Origin: Bdellovibrionales bacterium
GTDB taxonomy: Bacteria > Bdellovibrionota > Bdellovibrionia > Bdellovibrionales > JAMPXM01
Assembly: GCA_043732445.1 (NCBI GenBank)
Contig: JAYTHQ010000190.1
Coordinates: forward strand, 1-34,389
Direction: 5' to 3'
Length of the DNA stretch: 34,389 nucleotides
Position numbers and translations under genes: made by a program. Below the pieces are notes generated by a model, which did not search any database, was not told the DNA's origin, and saw only the letters and a program-made list of their open reading frames with translations. Positions 1 to 10,334 of the stretch are shown here, one piece after another. Numbering within the stretch: position 1 is the stretch's first letter; every line of letters starts with the position of its first letter.

Positions 1-612
1 GTTGGTTCAGCGGTCACGATTGCGATGTGGTCGGTTCCGAAATTCATTATCAGTTTTTTTTGGGATAAGCGTTGCACCGCTTTCGTCACGCAAATGGTCG
101 ACGGCATGACTTTGATGGCGAACGGCGTGAAGGCCGGACTCTCCGTTCAGCAGTGCATGGAGCGGATCCAGGAAAATATGCCAAACCCGATCAGCCAAGA
201 GTTTGGTCTAGTTCTTTCACAAATGCGACTCGGCCGCGGCATGTCCGAGGCTCTCAACGATCTTGGTACGCGCCTTCCTCGACCCGACGTTCAGATGTTC
301 GTCACGAGCGTAAATATTTTGAGCGAGACCGGCGGTAACATGGCAGAAACATTCCAGACCATCACGTATACGATTCGTGAACGGCAAAAAATCGAAAAGA
401 AAATTGAAGCGATGACCGCACAAGGCGTCGCGCAAGGCGTGATCATCACACTCATTCCTTTTGCCCTTTTGGTCGTCTTCTTCATCGTGGACCCTACTTA
501 TGTCCAGCCGCTCTTCACCACGACCCTCGGACTCATTGCCCTCTTCGTCATGCTAGCCCTGCAAACTATCGGTGGCTTGATGATCAGGAAAGTTGTTAAA
601 ATCAACGTGTAA
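1..612 (+). CDS. Tad/Flp pilus assembly platform protein (TadB/TadC, T2SS-F family), 5'-truncated by the window edge
   Basis: The frame is open from base 1, with no stop before the first ATG at 25. The translation has T2SS-F-like segments (GGNMAETFQTITYTIRERQKIEKKIEAMTAQG) followed by C-terminal TM helices. Stop TAA at 610-612. Confidence 0.8.
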   Translation, partial: VGSAVTIAMWSVPKFIISFFWDKRCTAFVTQMVDGMTLMANGVKAGLSVQQCMERIQENMPNPISQEFGLVLSQMRLGRGMSEALNDLGTRLPRPDVQMFVTSVNILSETGGNMAETFQTITYTIRERQKIEKKIEAMTAQGVAQGVIITLIPFALLVVFFIVDPTYVQPLFTTTLGLIALFVMLALQTIGGLMIRKVVKINV

Positions 613-637
613 GGCAAAGAAGAGAAGGAGTTTTTCG

Positions 638-2311
638 ATGCAGCGTTTATTGCTGATCTCGCTTTTATTTTTGGCAACGTTGATCCCGCAAAAGGGACAG
701 GCGGTTGTCGACATGAAGAACGCAAACTACAGCGACTCATGGTTAGATCTTTCGTTCAACGGCAGCGGTTACGCACTTCGCGTGCAACGCTTCTACAACA
801 GCCGTTCGATTTTCTCAGGCATCTTTGGCTTCGGCTGGTGCTCAGAATTCGAAACGAATATCGAGAAAACTCCCGAAGGCCGCTTGAAACTCGTTGAGTG
901 CGGAGCCGGTCAGGAGACCATCTACTCGCCGGCAAAGTTCGATGCGAAAAGCATGGATCGGTTAATCGATCAGCTGATTGCGCACTACAAAAAATCAACT
1001 CCCGGCGCGACTGAAACGGGCGCAACGACTTTGCGCGAGCAGCTTCACAACTCCGCGGATCTTCGCAGCGAGTGGGCGAAGCACGCTGGCATCGCGATTC
1101 CCGACGTAAAGAAGAACGTCGTCTACTCTGCCGACAATCTTGAAGTCGAAAAGATCGTTTTCGATGGCACGAATTACGTTCGGTCCCTCGCTGATGGAAC
1201 CGCTCAACGCTTCGATGCGAGTGGCCACCTAGTGCTGATGAACGACAAAAACGGCAATAACTTGAAGCTGTCTTATGCCAACGACACGCTCCACGAGATC
1301 GTCGACAACACCGGCAAAAAGCTCACGTTTACGTTTAATCAAAACAAACGCGTGAAAGACATTACCGGCCCAGGCGGCGCGAAGGCTGAATATAAATATA
1401 AGGGCGAGGATCTCGTCGACGTTCGCAATATGTGGAAAAACAAGTACACGTACGATTACGACGAAACGCACAACCTCACGAAAATTAATTTTCCCGATGG
1501 AACATTCAAGGCACTCACCTACAATCAGAAACAAGATTGGGTGACGTCGTTCACGGATCGCGCTGTGGGCGGACCGGCTTGCGTGGAGACTTACAAGTAC
1601 GAAGTAAACAAGAACGATCCGAAGAATAACTTCTGGTCGACGGCTCTCAAAAAGTGCGGCGGCGAAGTGAAAAATGACGCTCGCTTTGAGTTCTGGCACA
1701 AAACCCGCGCCGACGGAAAAAAGTATCTCGCGCGTGTTTTAACAAAAACTCTTTCGAATACTCTGGACGTGACTTACCACCCTGACCTCGGTCGTCCAAC
1801 GTCGGTGAAAAAAGACGGCGTCGTTACGACGTTTGATTATTATCCAAACGGCCTTGTTCGCGAGAAGACGACTCCGAACATGCGTCTCGCGTTTGAGTAC
1901 AAAAACGATTTCAACAAAGTTTCGAAGGTAGCGACAGACTTCCTCGATGCGAAAGGAAAAGTCGTTCGTAAACGCCAAACAGATTTCACTTACGATCCGA
2001 AAGCGAATTTGGTCGCAGCCCAGAACTCCGACGGACAATCAGTGAAGCTGACGTACGACGGCCGCGGTCGCATCGCGACTATTTTAGATCAGGCGAAAAA
2101 AGAAGTCCTCGTGAAGTGGGATGAAAAAACCGGCAAGCCTGCGCAGATCACCCGCCCCGGCGTCGGAACAATTAAACTCACGTACAAAGCGAGCGGCGAC
2201 ATCAATAAAGTCGATAGCCCAGACGGCCCGACAGTTGCGAGCCAGATCGCAGTTAGCTTCAATAATCTTTTAGACATCATCGCCCCGGCGACGTCTGAAT
2301 TGAACATGTAA
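638..2311 (+). CDS. exported YD/RHS-repeat protein (557 aa) with no recognisable C-terminal toxin
   Basis: ORF 593..2311. Preferred start is ATG 638, preceded by GGAG at 627-630. Sec signal MQRLLLISLLFLATLIPQKGQA. YD repeats present (YTYDYDETHNLTKINFPDG, FTYDPKANLVAAQNSDG, LTYDGRGRIATILD). Confidence 0.85.
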   Translation: MQRLLLISLLFLATLIPQKGQAVVDMKNANYSDSWLDLSFNGSGYALRVQRFYNSRSIFSGIFGFGWCSEFETNIEKTPEGRLKLVECGAGQETIYSPAKFDAKSMDRLIDQLIAHYKKSTPGATETGATTLREQLHNSADLRSEWAKHAGIAIPDVKKNVVYSADNLEVEKIVFDGTNYVRSLADGTAQRFDASGHLVLMNDKNGNNLKLSYANDTLHEIVDNTGKKLTFTFNQNKRVKDITGPGGAKAEYKYKGEDLVDVRNMWKNKYTYDYDETHNLTKINFPDGTFKALTYNQKQDWVTSFTDRAVGGPACVETYKYEVNKNDPKNNFWSTALKKCGGEVKNDARFEFWHKTRADGKKYLARVLTKTLSNTLDVTYHPDLGRPTSVKKDGVVTTFDYYPNGLVREKTTPNMRLAFEYKNDFNKVSKVATDFLDAKGKVVRKRQTDFTYDPKANLVAAQNSDGQSVKLTYDGRGRIATILDQAKKEVLVKWDEKTGKPAQITRPGVGTIKLTYKASGDINKVDSPDGPTVASQIAVSFNNLLDIIAPATSELNM

Positions 2312-2322
2312 GGATCGATAAG

Positions 2323-2598
2323 ATGAAAATGATTTATACCCTCACTTTTCTCGTCCTTCTTGTCGTCGCGGCCCCTAGATTTGCCAAAGCCGTTTCAGGA
2401 GACACGAATCATATCGCAAGTGAAAATCTCGAAACGGTCGCCGAACACTCGTCGGATGGCGCACGCGTCGGAACCTATTGTGCCCCGTGTGGAAAATATG
2501 TCATGGGCGGCGCGATTACCGACGGCGGAGCTATCCATCCGGTCGGCGAGCCAGTGAAAACCACCAAGGGCACCGGCAAAGCCAACAGCTCGAAGTAG
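2323..2598 (+). CDS. small exported protein (91 aa), Gly/Thr/Ser-rich with a CxxC; candidate hit-locus (Bd0108-like) protein
   Basis: AGGA lies upstream of ATG 2323. Signal peptide MKMIYTLTFLVLLVVAAPRFAKA. The mature part is low in hydrophobic residues and contains CAPCG. It starts 11 nt after the YD-repeat gene. Confidence 0.6.
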   Translation: MKMIYTLTFLVLLVVAAPRFAKAVSGDTNHIASENLETVAEHSSDGARVGTYCAPCGKYVMGGAITDGGAIHPVGEPVKTTKGTGKANSSK

Positions 2599-2620
2599 CT
2601 TCTCGGATATGTTCGGCTCA

Positions 2621-2673
2621 GGTGCCACCTTCCTTTACGAAACGCAGCGCGTTTCGTAAAGGAAGGTGGCACC
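2621..2673 (+). terminator. 25-bp perfect inverted repeat with a 3-nt loop; probable transcript-end hairpin
   Basis: ggtgccaccttcctttacgaaacgc (2621-2645), agc, gcgtttcgtaaaggaaggtggcacc (2649-2673). It begins 22 nt after the stop at 2598. No immediate T-tract; a second short GC hairpin plus TTTT follows at about 2680-2697. Confidence 0.45.
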
Positions 2674-2867
2674 TCCGGACCGGCGGGCCGGCGAAGTTTT
2701 CGACAGCTGGTGAAACGCTTGGTCACTCTGACCGACACACCCGCGAAATCTCAAATTGAGACACACCATTTCTAATAGCTTCGAGGTCACGGGATTCGGC
2801 GGGCACATGTTTCGTATTACTGATTAGTACGAAGTTAAAAGCGCCGTCACCGTCTCAGGAGCCACCG

Positions 2868-3149
2868 ATGAAACAAGCCCTCCTCGCCCTCAGCCTGCTT
2901 CTCTCGTTCAATGGCTTCGCGGTAGCAGCGAACCAGCCGCCTGCGGCCTCTAGCTTTGAGGACCCAAACAACGTTTATTCTGAAGTTGGCACCACGTACC
3001 AAGCCTCAAAAAAGAAATTGGGCGGGTGCGCTGCCACAGCCCCTGGCGATACCGCTAACGCGCGCTTCATTCGAGCCAACGGTTTTGCCGTCGACACGCC
3101 TGAGAACAACTCATTCACGCGCGCCGCTAGCTCACGTTCTTCTATTTAA
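2868..3149 (+). CDS. small exported hypothetical protein (93 aa)
   Basis: GGAG lies upstream of ATG 2868. Signal peptide MKQALLALSLLLSFNGFAVA. No recognisable domain. Confidence 0.55.
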   Translation: MKQALLALSLLLSFNGFAVAANQPPAASSFEDPNNVYSEVGTTYQASKKKLGGCAATAPGDTANARFIRANGFAVDTPENNSFTRAASSRSSI

Positions 3150-3158
3150 ATTGATAGT

Positions 3159-3566
3159 TTAGTTGGTTGAATCGTCTTCGTTAGAATCGGCAGGTACCGA
3201 CTCAGCGTTTGGCGTTGAGCGCTCATTTCGCTCACGCTCGCGGGCCTGCTTTGACTCGCGCTCTTTTTGCCGATGATACGCGGCACTTCTCTTAATCTTA
3301 AACCACTCACGCGACGCCTGCGCCGAAGCCGCATCTGGCTCTGGCGGCTGATCGCTGCCGATGAGGCTTGCTACTCCCCGCTTAGCTTCAGTGCCAACCT
3401 TCACCGCGCCCTCGGCAACATCTTGCAGATGGTGAGAGATCGGCGAATGGTGGATCCAAGTCATCGCGTGACCTTCCACCGTGCGCTGGCCGATTCTTAT
3501 TTGCAAAAGCACGACGATCGCGACCGTCACGATCAAACACTTTAAAACGAAAATTAAATCACCCAT
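3159..3566 (-). CDS. membrane-anchored hypothetical protein with a highly charged C-terminal tail
   Basis: ORF 3159..3590. Preferred ATG at 3566 overlaps the upstream response-regulator stop by 8 nt (ATGGGTGA). N-terminal TM segment LIFVLKCLIVTVAIVVLLQI, and an Arg/Glu/Lys-rich tail. Confidence 0.55.
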   Translation of the reverse strand: MGDLIFVLKCLIVTVAIVVLLQIRIGQRTVEGHAMTWIHHSPISHHLQDVAEGAVKVGTEAKRGVASLIGSDQPPEPDAASAQASREWFKIKRSAAYHRQKERESKQARERERNERSTPNAESVPADSNEDDSTN

Positions 3567-3933
3567 GAGTTCCTCCGCTGACGCTTTCACGAATCACTTT
3601 AACAAGTTCCTCTGCCTTAAAGGGCTTCACTAAATAACTGCAACATCCAGCTTCGAGTGCGCGCATGACGAGCGTGTCTTGGTCAGCGGTCGAAAATGCG
3701 ATGAGTTTTATTTTTGGATGAAGCGCCGTGATTTCCTTTGCCGCCTCAATCCCACTTTTATTCGGCATAATAATATCAAGCAGCATCACATCCGGTGAGA
3801 GCTTCGTCGCGAGCGCAACGGCCTCGTTGCCGTCGGTCGCCTCGCCAACTAACTCGATTTGATTCGAGTCAGCCACGTGTCTTACGATTTCGCGAATGAA
3901 GGGGGCGTCGTCAGCGACGATCAAACGAATCAT
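3559..3933 (-). CDS. single-domain CheY-like response regulator
   Basis: All canonical receiver residues are present: DD (ADDAPF), phospho-acceptor Asp in MLLDIIMP, Thr/Ser in AFSTAD, Lys in LVKPF. No output domain. Confidence 0.9.
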   Translation of the reverse strand: MIRLIVADDAPFIREIVRHVADSNQIELVGEATDGNEAVALATKLSPDVMLLDIIMPNKSGIEAAKEITALHPKIKLIAFSTADQDTLVMRALEAGCCSYLVKPFKAEELVKVIRESVSGGTHG

Positions 3934-4018: not shown

Positions 4019-5083
4019 CTAATCAGCCCAGGTGTAGCCGAGCTGAAAGAGCGTAAATGTGCTGGTCACCGACACGTTCGTTTGACGGGCTCCGGCGATT
4101 GGATCGGGTATGCTGGTTGAGCCCGAGAAAAGGTTCTTCTCGACTCCATAAGAAACTTTCCAAAAAACCGATTGCGTACTGTCAAAGCGGTACCTAGCTC
4201 CAACATGAACGCCAACCGATGTTGTTTGCGCTTCGTCACCCGTTCGAAATTCAGTCGCGGCACTGGTCTCACTGTGTCGAAGCTTGGGACCAAATTCGCC
4301 CCCAAAAGCCCACGATCCAAAACCCGATGTCGGAACCTCAGCGTCGAGCAAAAGAAATAGACCCGACGTCGCTAACTTATTTCGGAAAATAGAATCGCTC
4401 GGAACTCGAAACTGAAACTCGCGGTAATCGAGTCCCAGCCGCAACATCGGCGCGAGGGATCCCACACCGAAGAAGTGACGGCTTTGCGCACCGACTGAAA
4501 ACCATTGGTCAGAGGCGCTGGCATTTTTTGTATTGTCGAGCGAATCCGAAATGCTTCCATTTAAGCTTCCGAGAAAACTCGTATGTAATCCAAAGCCTGA
4601 TGAAACCCAGACTCGTGCGTCGATATTCATGACCGGCGCATTCAAAAAGTAATTTCTCGGTGCAAACGTCGACTTGGATTCGCTGTACAGATAGCCCGGC
4701 GCAATTGAAATCTCGAGCATCGTGCGACGCCGATCATCAATCGAAACTTTTGCGGCCGCGGGCTCATCGGCTTGATCGTCGGTCACGTCGTCGGTGCCGG
4801 CTTCGCCGTTTTGGCTTTCTGTCACCGCGACCGGAGCGGGGGCCGGAGTCGCGGCCGTTGGCGGAGCTGGTTTGACGTCTTTGTGTGGCGTAGCTATTCT
4901 CTCATCATGGTGAACAACCTCCGAGCGAGGACGAACCGTGTAGCGGCCAGAATCAAGTCCGTTATCGCGAACGTTTGCGCGAGGGCCACTGTTCAATAGC
5001 ATCGCTGACGACGGGTCGATTTGTGCTTCAACCCTCGCAGATAAAATGACGATAAAACTGGCCAGGAACAGAAAGAAACGCAT
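4019..5083 (-). CDS. exported protein with a Pro/Ala-rich linker and a C-terminal beta-barrel-like domain (putative outer-membrane protein)
   Basis: ORF 4019..5134 (TTG). The first ATG at 5083 gives signal MRFFLFLASFIVILSARVEA. PAPPTAATPAPAPV linker. The C-terminal half has an alternating amphipathic strand pattern. Confidence 0.65.
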   Translation of the reverse strand: MRFFLFLASFIVILSARVEAQIDPSSAMLLNSGPRANVRDNGLDSGRYTVRPRSEVVHHDERIATPHKDVKPAPPTAATPAPAPVAVTESQNGEAGTDDVTDDQADEPAAAKVSIDDRRRTMLEISIAPGYLYSESKSTFAPRNYFLNAPVMNIDARVWVSSGFGLHTSFLGSLNGSISDSLDNTKNASASDQWFSVGAQSRHFFGVGSLAPMLRLGLDYREFQFRVPSDSIFRNKLATSGLFLLLDAEVPTSGFGSWAFGGEFGPKLRHSETSAATEFRTGDEAQTTSVGVHVGARYRFDSTQSVFWKVSYGVEKNLFSGSTSIPDPIAGARQTNVSVTSTFTLFQLGYTWAD

Positions 5084-5154
5084 CAGTTTCTTTTCGGATT
5101 TTGAACTCGCCGTCTTGATTGCTTTCAGTACCAAGCTTAGGCAAACTAGACTCT

Positions 5155-6798
5155 ATGTTGTCGCTAAAAAACAAGCTGGCGTCTTTGATCATGGTCGCTC
5201 TCGCGACCCTCACTTTCACGACGAAGGTCGAGGCTCAAAGCTCTAATCCCTTGATCGAGCAAAGCGCGACTTACGTTAGCGCGGTCGACGAAAGCCTGAC
5301 GCTCCGTCGCGTTGCGGTCTTACCGGTTGTCGACAACGTCGGTGGAATCTACGCGCGCCCGATTGAAGCGCAGTTGATTTCTTTGGTTCGCGACTCGCAC
5401 CGCTGGGACCAAGCTGACGTCGCCATTTCTAGTGCGATGCCAAGCGTTTCAGAACTCGAAGAAAAGACAGCGTCTTTTCAAAAACTCATCAAAAATCTCG
5501 ATGCCGACGCGTTTTTCGTTGCGGCGGCCAGCCGCGGACCGAACGGGCTTTCGCTTCGGCTCGATTTATTTCTGAAAAAAGACGGAAAACTTCTCGCGCA
5601 AGAATTATTAAAAGAGCACCCGCGCACCGAAATTCCGCAACTCAAAGAGCAAGTTAAAATTCTCTACGACCGCTTGGTCGCCAAATTGCCGTATCAAGGC
5701 CTAATTCTTAGCCGACAAAATAATCGAGTGACGATCAACTTAGGAAAGTCCGACGGACTTAAAAAAGATCAAATCGTTTCCGCTGTTCAGATTATCACCG
5801 TTACTCGCCATCCAAAATTCGGTTTTTTGCTTAGTACCGATAAAGAAATTCTCGGACGAATTAAAATACTGAAGGTCGACGACACACTCAGTTTTGGCGC
5901 CATCATCAGCGAAAGAGAACGTGGCGCGATTCGGCGCTTTGCCAAAATCACAAGCCTTGAAGTCGTCAATTACGGCGATCCCAATTCTTTGAGCCCTGAC
6001 GCAGACAAGGATTTAAGCAAAAGGCCCGACGCCGGCGTCGCGTTCGGCCAAGATGCGAAGGAATGGGTTCCGGCAAAACCGCCTGCGTTTGGCGAAGTCG
6101 GTGGCCGCCTCGGACTTGGCATTTACAACACGAGCTTAAATATAAATTCAGGTTGTTGCGAGGCGAAGAGTGCCTTCTACCCGAGCCTCGCTCTTCATGG
6201 TGAACTTTGGCTGACTCCGCAATGGATCGCGCGCGCCGAAATTATACAGGGCGTACTTTCAACACCTAATCCACGTGCCGGATCGACCCCTGGTGACTTG
6301 AATCATTCTTACTCTCGCTATTCGCTCGTATTTGGTTACAACTTTCTTTTGCACGATGATTTTTTTGGACCGAAATTGCAGCTCAGTGCAGGCCTTGCAA
6401 AAGCGAACATGTTTGTCGACGACAGCTCACCGCGCTCACTGACCTCCACATCTTTTAGCGGCCTTGAAGTCGGCCTGCTGGGCCTTTTCCCCGTCACCGA
6501 CGAGAAAATTTGGTACTTGGGCGGTAAATTTAATCTCTTCCTCTTCCCGAAAATGTCCGAATCACCGATCACGTCGGGCGGCGACCCAAAAGCAAGCATT
6601 GCCGACTTCTCGATTTTTGTTCAGAAAAAACTCGGGCAAAATTTAAGGGCCGAGGGTTCTCTTGATTTCTCTCTTTACTCGGCAAACTACAGCGGCGACG
6701 GGAATCGGCTCGATCCCACGGGCACAACGCCAGAAACCGCCGGCAGTTTAAGCCAGCGCCACACCATCTTGAGCGGCGGCATCGTCTACATGTTCTGA
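5155..6798 (+). CDS. outer-membrane beta-barrel protein with an N-terminal periplasmic domain
   Basis: The first ATG at 5155 gives signal MLSLKNKLASLIMVALATLTFTTKVEA. An RVAVLPVVDN-type N-domain is present. The C-terminus ends in GGIVYMF, a typical OMP terminal Phe. Confidence 0.7.
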   Translation: MLSLKNKLASLIMVALATLTFTTKVEAQSSNPLIEQSATYVSAVDESLTLRRVAVLPVVDNVGGIYARPIEAQLISLVRDSHRWDQADVAISSAMPSVSELEEKTASFQKLIKNLDADAFFVAAASRGPNGLSLRLDLFLKKDGKLLAQELLKEHPRTEIPQLKEQVKILYDRLVAKLPYQGLILSRQNNRVTINLGKSDGLKKDQIVSAVQIITVTRHPKFGFLLSTDKEILGRIKILKVDDTLSFGAIISERERGAIRRFAKITSLEVVNYGDPNSLSPDADKDLSKRPDAGVAFGQDAKEWVPAKPPAFGEVGGRLGLGIYNTSLNINSGCCEAKSAFYPSLALHGELWLTPQWIARAEIIQGVLSTPNPRAGSTPGDLNHSYSRYSLVFGYNFLLHDDFFGPKLQLSAGLAKANMFVDDSSPRSLTSTSFSGLEVGLLGLFPVTDEKIWYLGGKFNLFLFPKMSESPITSGGDPKASIADFSIFVQKKLGQNLRAEGSLDFSLYSANYSGDGNRLDPTGTTPETAGSLSQRHTILSGGIVYMF

Positions 6799-7721: not shown

Positions 7722-8177
7722 TCAGAGGCGCTTTTCCATTTCAATATTGCCGCGCTCGTATTCGGGATGCTGACCAACGCTGATGACGGTATACCCATGC
7801 TTCAAGTAAAGCGCGATCGCAGCTTCAAGTTCTGTATTGGAAACGAGGTAGATTCGCGTCGCACTTTTCTCGCGCGCCCACGCTTCGGTGAGTTTCATAA
7901 TGAGATCACCTAATTTTTTACCGCGATGATCAGGCTGTACAGCCATCTTGGCTATCTCGTAACCACCGTCACTCATCTTGATCATCGCAGCAGTTGCGAT
8001 CGCTTCACCTTTATCAGAAACGATAAAGAAAACTTCACCGCCGCTTGCGACAATAGCTTCAGGATTCGAAAGCTGCTCGCGATCTTTCTTCTCAACTTTG
8101 AAATAGTGCTCGATCCACTCAAGATTCAGATCGCGAAACGCATTTTTATATTCAGGTAGGTACGTCGTGACTTTCAT
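7722..8177 (-). CDS. GNAT family N-acetyltransferase
   Basis: 151 aa. Motif A region VQPDHRGKKLGDLIMKLTEAWAREKSATRIYLVSN, followed by AIALYLKHGY. Confidence 0.85.
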   Translation of the reverse strand: MKVTTYLPEYKNAFRDLNLEWIEHYFKVEKKDREQLSNPEAIVASGGEVFFIVSDKGEAIATAAMIKMSDGGYEIAKMAVQPDHRGKKLGDLIMKLTEAWAREKSATRIYLVSNTELEAAIALYLKHGYTVISVGQHPEYERGNIEMEKRL

Positions 8178-8309: not shown

Positions 8310-9980
<1,671 letters not shown>

Positions 9981-10028: not shown

Positions 10029-10334
10029 TCAGTTGAAAACGCCGAGAACGTCTTCTTCTTTGATCATCAAGAATTCTTGGCCATCGAGTTTCAAGTCAGT
10101 TCCGCCGTATTTCGAGAACAAAACTTTATCGCCGACTTTCACTTCGAGCGGCAAAACTTTGCCGTCTTCGAGGATGCGGCCTTTACCCGTGGCGACGACT
10201 TCGCCGCGCTGAGGTTTTTCTTTTGCGGTATCAGGAATAATCAAACCGCCTGCAGTTTTCTCTTCTTCAGCCATGCGGCGAACAAGAATGCGATCGTGAA
10301 GTGGGCGGACTTTCAGGTCCGAAGACTTAGCCAT
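10029..10334 (-). CDS. groS: co-chaperonin GroES (Cpn10)
   Basis: 101 aa: [14 protein letters not shown]...[26 protein letters not shown]. It lies 66 nt upstream of groEL. Confidence 0.98.

Follow-up and report, generated by a model that had tools for sequence, protein, structure and literature searches.

Probable orthologues of the Bdellovibrio hit gene pair as the last genes of a Tad pilus operon from an uncultured member of the Bdellovibrionales

The window analysed here is the whole of contig JAYTHQ010000190.1 (34,389 nt; contig C190 below), part of a metagenome-assembled genome (MAG) of an uncultured Bdellovibrionales bacterium (GCA_043732445.1; 2.1 Mb in 446 contigs, 87% complete). Positions 1–2598 probably represent the 3′-terminal part of an operon for a Tad (type IVb) pilus that closes with orthologues of the host-interaction (hit) gene pair of Bdellovibrio bacteriovorus HD100, the products of which are Bd0109 and Bd0108. 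Three open reading frames (ORFs) make up this region (Table 1): a pilus platform gene that is open at its 5′ end, a gene for a YD/RHS-repeat protein of 557 amino acids (aa; MQRLLL...), and a gene for an exported protein of 91 aa. The hit locus is the classic genetic entry point to the study of predatory as against prey-independent life in Bdellovibrio, and in HD100 the genes bd0108 to bd0119 constitute a Tad/type IVb operon with Bd0109 and Bd0108 at its end (PMC3818213, PMC4267844). The window reveals no new kind of system; what it offers is a recognisable hit pair that appears to have persisted in a different, uncultured family of the order.

The YD-repeat protein at the end of the Tad operon

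An earlier note on this DNA, written from the letters alone, had described an exported YD-repeat protein, and this description held. The product matches the Pfam families RHS_repeat (PF05593, 4.8e-12) and DUF6531 (2.9e-08) and the NCBIfam model YD_repeat_2x (TIGR01643, 3.5e-14). Its N-terminus is of the Sec type, MQRLLLISLLFLATLIPQKGQA/VVD (the slash marks the assigned end of the signal peptide), with a hydrophobic helix ending at KGQA/VVD and sequence conservation beginning at A22/V24. Signal peptides were assigned throughout by hydrophobicity and a −3/−1 heuristic, not by SignalP.

A scan for homologues, using one genome per GTDB species, returned 79 related loci, in which the protein was matched over its full length at 43–78% identity. 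Identity to the proteins of B. bacteriovorus YOA24, Bd16 and s4 is 49–50% over residues 4–557, and the match lies at about 95–108 kb of the complete Bd16 and s4 chromosomes. At profile level the match has an E value of 3.8e-269, and profile searching found a full-length relative in 291 of the 301 sampled Bdellovibrionota genomes (253 of the 257 high-quality ones), so that the Bd0109-type protein can be regarded as a near-universal core gene of the phylum. Bd0109 itself, described as 'WapA-like', is exported, carries YD/RHS repeats from about residue 125 onwards and is without a protease or toxin part (PMC3818213, PMC4267844). By sequence comparison, the window YD protein is a full-length orthologue of Bd0109.

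The AlphaFold2 (AF2) model of the window protein (predicted local distance difference test score, pLDDT, 85; predicted template modelling score, pTM, 0.74) starts with an N-domain of the DUF6531 type, continues through a helical insert and about half of an Rhs beta-shell, and finishes with a C-terminal helix. Its best Foldseek matches are Rhs cocoons (E values of 1e-20 to 1e-22), including RhsA (7q97) with a template modelling score of 0.58 over 528 columns. A profile search of the PDB found no structure of Bd0109, the only matches being to Rhs and teneurin repeats. The predicted YD-repeat beta-spiral shell is the fold of the Rhs effectors of type VI secretion systems and of the Tc-toxin BC cocoons (RhsA 7q97, the Salmonella bongori Rhs core 8qjb/8qjd, YenBC 4igl), and Rhs-type repeats followed by a small gene are the usual layout of an Rhs polymorphic toxin, situated at the C-terminus of the YD protein, with an immunity protein encoded downstream. 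As an explanation of the window pair this is effectively refuted. Unlike the cocoons, the window protein has roughly half the shell length, no N-terminal plug, no VgrG/PAAR adaptor, no aspartyl-protease core end and no toxin or immunity gene, and it is Sec-exported and tied to a pilus operon. The core-end motif PxxxxDPxGL was not found in it by motif search. Among 50 aligned YD homologues, 57 invariant columns extend from V24 to P550, along the whole length of the protein, so the C-terminus, its helix included, is conserved and not polymorphic. The product of the downstream gene is exported and predicted to be disordered, not a folded cytoplasmic immunity protein.

The placing of this gene at the end of a Tad pilus cluster, also proposed in the earlier note, was borne out by the T2SSF match of the first ORF (Table 1) and by the remainder of the MAG. 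In 76 loci, the YD gene is preceded by a gene to which the platform gene is 59–84% identical (tblastn). The first ~87 codons of the platform gene were located on another contig of the same MAG, C40, which stops at residue 87; the window takes up the gene at residue 89 (numbering of the orthologue at locus L077). C40 also holds a TadE/F-like gene, CpaB, the CpaC secretin and a TadZ-CpaF-type ATPase (C40:3–5673, reverse). Because C40 carries the rest of the Tad cluster and the junction falls inside the T2SSF gene, the two contigs abut and the pilus end is real. The intergenic gaps are short, 25 nt (613–637) before the YD gene and 11 nt (2312–2322) before the small gene, and each start codon is preceded at a distance of 8 nt by a Shine-Dalgarno sequence (AAGGAG and AAGGA, respectively). 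Given this tight spacing and the terminal hairpin that follows, the small gene is likely co-transcribed with the Tad genes.

In several related loci, the Tad ATPase is a protein of ~737 aa in which an N-terminal ParA/MinD-like (TadZ/CpaE-type) P-loop domain is apparently fused to CpaF (L016:2863–5073, L026:2863–5082 and L029:2842–5058). The equivalent region of L077 reads as two ORFs.

The order TadC, YD gene, small gene, orf143 (−), CheY-like regulator (−), orf371 (−), orf559 (+) and groEL (−) is collinear with that of YOA24, Bd16 and s4 by tblastn, and the likeness to HD100 takes in the order and orientation of the genes that follow the Tad platform gene, the collinear flanks as far as groEL, and the 49–50% full-length identity of the YD protein. 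The gene for GroEL lies 5.7 kb from the small gene and in the collinear place in 31 loci; the earlier note had put groES-groEL at about this distance, and NCBIfam identifies both. The genome is assigned to the taxonomic order of the genomes in which the match lies at about 100 kb of a complete 3.8-Mb chromosome, as in B. bacteriovorus; it is smaller, and its family, which is uncultured, is a different one. Each of the 79 related loci comes from a Bdellovibrionota or Bdellovibrionales record, one of them with a Bacillota MAG label. YD orthology together with collinearity from TadC to groEL sustains the earlier proposal of a syntenic bd0109/bd0108 module, with similarity, synteny and an assignment to Bdellovibrionota all found.

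The small protein in the bd0108 position

At the YOA24 locus (L026), the ORF that lies 19 nt past the YD gene encodes 101 aa and contains N32, D36, A52, C56, C59, R81, K84 and Q101, which are all of the Bd0108 residues named in PMC4267844. In 77 of the 78 loci that could be evaluated, the YD gene is followed, usually 10–25 nt past its stop codon, by a small ORF encoding a signal peptide; two contigs end too early to be evaluated, and L073 is the sole evaluable locus without such an ORF. Judged by its position, the small gene of the window occupies the bd0108 slot and is a positional orthologue.

The mature parts of the slot products share a feature that is rare elsewhere in the same loci. All 75 tabulated products have at least two cysteines, 61 of them as a tight pair (C-x0-5-C) and 39 as CxxC, and the tight pair lies at a relative position of 0.54–0.63 (interquartile range, IQR). 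In control windows of 75 aa taken from long ORFs of these loci, a tight pair occurs in 1.1% and CxxC in 0.2%, an enrichment across slot ORFs of about 50- to 200-fold over real proteins. A Sec signal, a hydrophilic mature part of 65–80 aa that is predicted to be disordered and a CxxC at about 55–60% of the length were taken as the features that define the class.

The window protein has these traits. It begins with a Sec-type N-terminus, MKMIYTLTFLVLLVVAAPRFAKA/VSG, and has no Pfam match. The mature part is rich in G, T, A and S with a G/T/K tail; 73% of its residues are disorder-promoting and 18% are hydrophobic, a value below those of 98.5% of the 75-aa windows from long ORFs. There is a single cysteine pair, C53-A-P-C56, near the middle of the protein, like C56/C59 of HD100, which are disulfide-bonded. 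With the alignment of its clade as input, AF2 gave a pLDDT of 60 and a pTM of 0.20, with coil beyond the signal helix apart from a short hairpin at residues 51–60 around CAPC. The protein is therefore predicted to be intrinsically disordered, and the modelled hairpin parallels Bd0108, which by nuclear magnetic resonance (NMR) is a random coil with residual structure at residues 56–66 around the disulfide (PMC4267844). The Sec signal, similar size, predicted disorder, mid-protein CxxC and G/S/T/K tail are all shared with HD100 Bd0108, which has 101 aa. The earlier description of an exported, Gly/Thr/Ser/Ala-rich protein with a cysteine pair and little hydrophobic content was accurate in every point, and the disorder prediction that it called for came out positive. 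It had also supposed that so short a gene might be missed by automated annotation; the gene had not been missed, since an identical product is already present in the protein collection. A reading of the protein as a Flp/Tad pilin was rejected, the G....E[YF] processing motif being absent.

Whether the small protein descends from the same ancestor as Bd0108 was judged mainly from comparisons of mature sequences. Within the syntenic set, the window protein links to the products of L069 and L013 (E values of ~1e-4) and falls in a component of 12 members, with Bd0108 in a separate component of 19; 330 pairs are linked in the real set and 0–2 in shuffled sets. Similarity across the slot proteins grades continuously through intermediate clades. 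When the 12-member and 19-member clades were aligned by hhalign, the score was 24.3 (P of 1e-4 to 4e-4), and an acidic, D-rich motif, the G-x-CxxC, a P-x-G segment and the basic tail came into register. None of 100 column shuffles reached this score (mean 7.7, standard deviation 1.7, maximum 12.5), and the reversed alignment, in which the palindromic CxxC is kept, scored 15.1.

Several results weigh against homology. The hhalign probability is only 28–37%. A full-length jackhmmer search from Bd0108 recruited the window protein by iterations 3–5, with only slot ORFs recruited among 4026 six-frame ORFs, but this connection was lost in the control without signal peptides, and the link was discounted as mainly driven by the signal peptide. 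The mature-only search from Bd0108 halted at 18 Bdellovibrio-type sequences, and that from the window protein gave no matches. NPGxDPNEA (residues 32–40), the conserved part of Bd0108 that contacts Bd0109, is not present in the window protein. The aligned stretch there reads SGDTNHIASE, and within its clade nothing but a D is shared.

These absences would be expected if an unrelated or de novo short secreted ORF had replaced the bd0108 ancestor, so that the two proteins share generic traits only and the newcomer has a different role in the switch or none. Such a replacement would also account for the small proteins being only 14–31% identical to that of the window even where the YD proteins are 60–78% identical, and for the 91-aa protein retrieving only itself when 5.8 billion proteins were searched by word index. 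It does not readily account for a profile–profile score that greatly exceeds those of the shuffled and reversed controls and puts the cysteine pair, the preceding Gly and P-x-G in register, for a cysteine pair at constant relative position in nearly all loci, for similarity that is graded through intermediate clades, or for the constant spacing to the YD stop codon. We consider replacement by a non-homologous gene improbable. The evidence on homology is mixed, with divergent orthology to Bd0108 as its best reading, and a likely one. As a counterpart of Bd0108, which is how the earlier note had treated it, the small protein thus stands by slot, features and the profile–profile link, and falls short in pairwise similarity of the mature part and in the NPGxDPNEA motif, both of which set it apart from the HD100 protein.

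The arrangement itself is already published, and the window pair adds another member. Twenty Bdellovibrionales MAGs from activated sludge were described as having two or three secreted ORFs of 57–133 aa between the Bd0109 and Bd0103 homologues, with marginal or no BLAST similarity to Bd0108 (E values of 1e-13 to 9.9; Water Res X 2023, PMC10469934). This is exactly the pattern of the window, although that study relied on BLAST and SignalP only; added here are the near-universal tight cysteine pair, the controlled profile–profile link between clades, predicted structures and the finding that the YD protein occurs across the phylum. In lineages other than that of the window, B. exovorus JSS (A11Q_2207/2208) and Bacteriovorax marinus SJ (BMS_0182-0184) have a homologue of Bd0109 and, after it, one or two small proteins with signal peptides (PMC4267844). 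Like the window protein, A11Q_2208 keeps CxxC and is missing the N-terminal Bd0108 motif, and the small neighbours in B. marinus were judged to be without significant homology to Bd0108 (PMC4267844). Comparative papers based on BLAST have called Bd0108 'unique to Bdellovibrio' or 'absent' from many predators. The present comparison of sequences suggests that such absences arise largely because BLAST fails on a small protein that evolves very fast, and do not reflect loss of the gene.

Function proposed by analogy with HD100

Binding of Bd0108 to Bd0109 is weak and 'fuzzy', with a Kd of 45 µM and a stoichiometry of about 3:1 (PMC4267844). The gene bd0109 is co-transcribed with tad genes, and bd0108 lesions are present in 89% of HD100 host-independent isolates. 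By analogy with HD100 (PMC3818213, PMC4267844), the disordered small protein of the window would bind the YD shell protein weakly in the periplasm and, by way of that protein, would tune extrusion and retraction of the predatory pilus. The state of the pilus may in turn gate the switch from attack phase to growth, in which case loss of the small protein would be expected to favour prey-independent growth. A lifestyle-switch role for the window gene can be inferred from this analogy; of the switch module of a Bdellovibrio-like predator that the earlier note had envisaged, the syntenic gene pair stands and the switch role is extrapolated from HD100 only. In Bdellovibrio itself, too, the connection of Bd0108 with the switch is only partly understood, and the existence of host-independent strains with wild-type bd0108 counts against it.

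A general accessory role in the Tad pilus is a serious functional alternative, because the YD protein is near-universal in the phylum and no deletion of bd0109 could be obtained in HD100. The two proteins would then be structural or assembly factors of the predatory Tad pilus, required wherever this pilus is produced. The pair might, for example, form part of the pilus tip, or act as a periplasmic chaperone and its cargo, host-independence being a side effect specific to Bdellovibrio. The spread of the YD protein far beyond strains known for host-independent variants is in keeping with this, as are the co-transcription of bd0109 with tad genes and the case of B. exovorus, which has the pair, yet from which host-independent variants are hard or impossible to obtain. 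The frequency of bd0108 lesions among host-independent isolates makes a regulatory role real in HD100, however, and an accessory role is compatible with orthology rather than opposed to it. On balance we regard a purely accessory function as possible but somewhat unlikely.

Conservation among the slot products suggests that constraint on the small protein is limited to the export signal, the tight cysteine pair and disorder, which narrows the area in which to search for its functional contact with the conserved YD shell. Tentatively, the Bd0108-type proteins, secreted and disordered, may form a single ancient family that evolves extremely fast, keeps only a signal peptide, a short disulfide handle in the form of CxxC, Cx4C or CC, and a G/S/T tail that is basic, and has been co-inherited with the phylum-wide half-shell Rhs protein. 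The conserved handle could then dock to the conserved shell, and the hypervariable remainder could provide the predatory Tad pilus with a signal or a determinant of specificity that is particular to the lineage.

The gene of B. bacteriovorus served as a positive control in an examination of slippage sites. It carries 10-nt direct repeats spaced 42 nt apart (CAAAGGCTCC at L026:7866–7875 and CAAGGGCTCC at 7908–7917), which coincide with the classic in-frame 42-bp host-independence deletion (residues 73–86). The window gene differs in having no repeat pair with 42-nt spacing, and an HD100-like hot spot was not seen in it; it has only imperfect repeats of 11 nt at a spacing of 16 nt and repeats of 10 nt at a spacing of 105 nt. 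As about one such repeat pair is estimated to arise by chance in 300 nt, no hot spot is claimed.

Elements downstream of the gene pair

Table 1. Features of the window discussed in the text, with positions and supporting evidence.
Feature	Positions	Strand	Basis
T2SSF Tad platform gene (TadB/C type), 5′-open; 3′ two-thirds, ~residues 89–291	1–612	+	ORF list; Pfam PF00482, 6.5e-20
Bd0109 orthologue (by sequence); Sec-exported, toxin-less YD/RHS-repeat protein, 557 aa	638–2311	+	ORF list; Pfam, NCBIfam, homology, AF2/Foldseek
Positional bd0108 orthologue; 91-aa pre-protein with ~23-aa signal peptide and ~68-aa mature part, predicted disordered	2323–2598	+	ORF list; slot; AF2
Perfect inverted repeat (26 + 26 nt, 3-nt loop), 21 nt past the small-gene stop	2620–2674	.	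100% complementary; folding
Second small exported protein, 93 aa, one Cys, AGGAG ribosome-binding site	2868–3149	+	ORF list; mature-only jackhmmer
Small membrane-anchored protein, convergent with the small-gene array, 3′ of the response regulator	3159–3563	−	tblastn; collinear in 37 loci
Stand-alone CheY-like response regulator	3559–3933	−	Pfam Response_reg, 9.9e-26; CheY-type top match; collinear in 52 loci
Exported 371-aa protein without Pfam/NCBIfam family	4019–5134	−	Collinear in 39 loci
559-aa protein without Pfam/NCBIfam family	5119–6798	+	Collinear in 45 loci
groES-groEL operon, collinear landmark	groEL 8310–9962; groES 10029–10334	−	NCBIfam GroEL 1e-260, GroES 5e-41

As at the HD100 hit locus, the small gene of the window is followed by a hairpin and then by a further small exported gene. 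The region of the inverted repeat has a minimum free energy (MFE) of −69.4 kcal/mol (z = −8.1), and there is no U-tract at the hairpin. It is likely an operon-end terminator or a 3′ stabilising hairpin, and would probably end the operon transcript, the second small exported gene being transcribed separately. Most related loci have a hairpin of 6–14 bp at the corresponding place, those of Bdellovibrio being A-stem-T terminators of 12–13 bp, in contrast to the perfect 26-bp stem of the window; this suggests that the latter is an unusually long version of the operon-end hairpin. A dispersed element of the repetitive extragenic palindromic (REP) type was ruled out, the sequence being unique in the genome, and a known RNA family was likewise rejected, Rfam giving only spurious hits to hairpins, with scores well under the gathering thresholds.

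Many loci have, directly after the slot gene, a palindrome whose core is GTCTCA-N3-TGAGAC (L009:8010–8040, L010, L011, L015, L007, L006, L004, L012, L018, L047, L069 and others). The window is without it. This palindrome could be the stem of a terminator typical of the lineage, or else a site at which a protein binds.

The small membrane-anchored protein encoded at 3159–3563 belongs to no Pfam or NCBIfam family. For the response regulator, it can be noted that Bd0102 has been described as a chemotaxis factor (PMC5941755). Two large conserved genes that separate the hit region from groEL, for proteins of 371 and 559 aa, are listed in Table 1.

The mature part of the second small protein has homologues in the same second slot of nine loci from the clade of the window (L018, L047, L004, L069, L012, L009, L010, L001 and L011), and the gene belongs to an array of short secreted genes 3′ of the hit pair. 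Between 2600 and 2867, no sigma-54-like promoter was found at up to 2 mismatches, and counts across the window were at chance level. In Bdellovibrio loci, the second slot is taken by a separate family, represented by one or two additional small exported ORFs (L026:8155–8355 and equivalents). In HD100, a 'non-coding sRNA' (small RNA) that is up-regulated in bd0108 mutants comes from roughly this region (Capeness et al. 2013), for which RefSeq annotates BD_RS00505. Since the second small ORF lies roughly there, the HD100 'sRNA' may be an mRNA.

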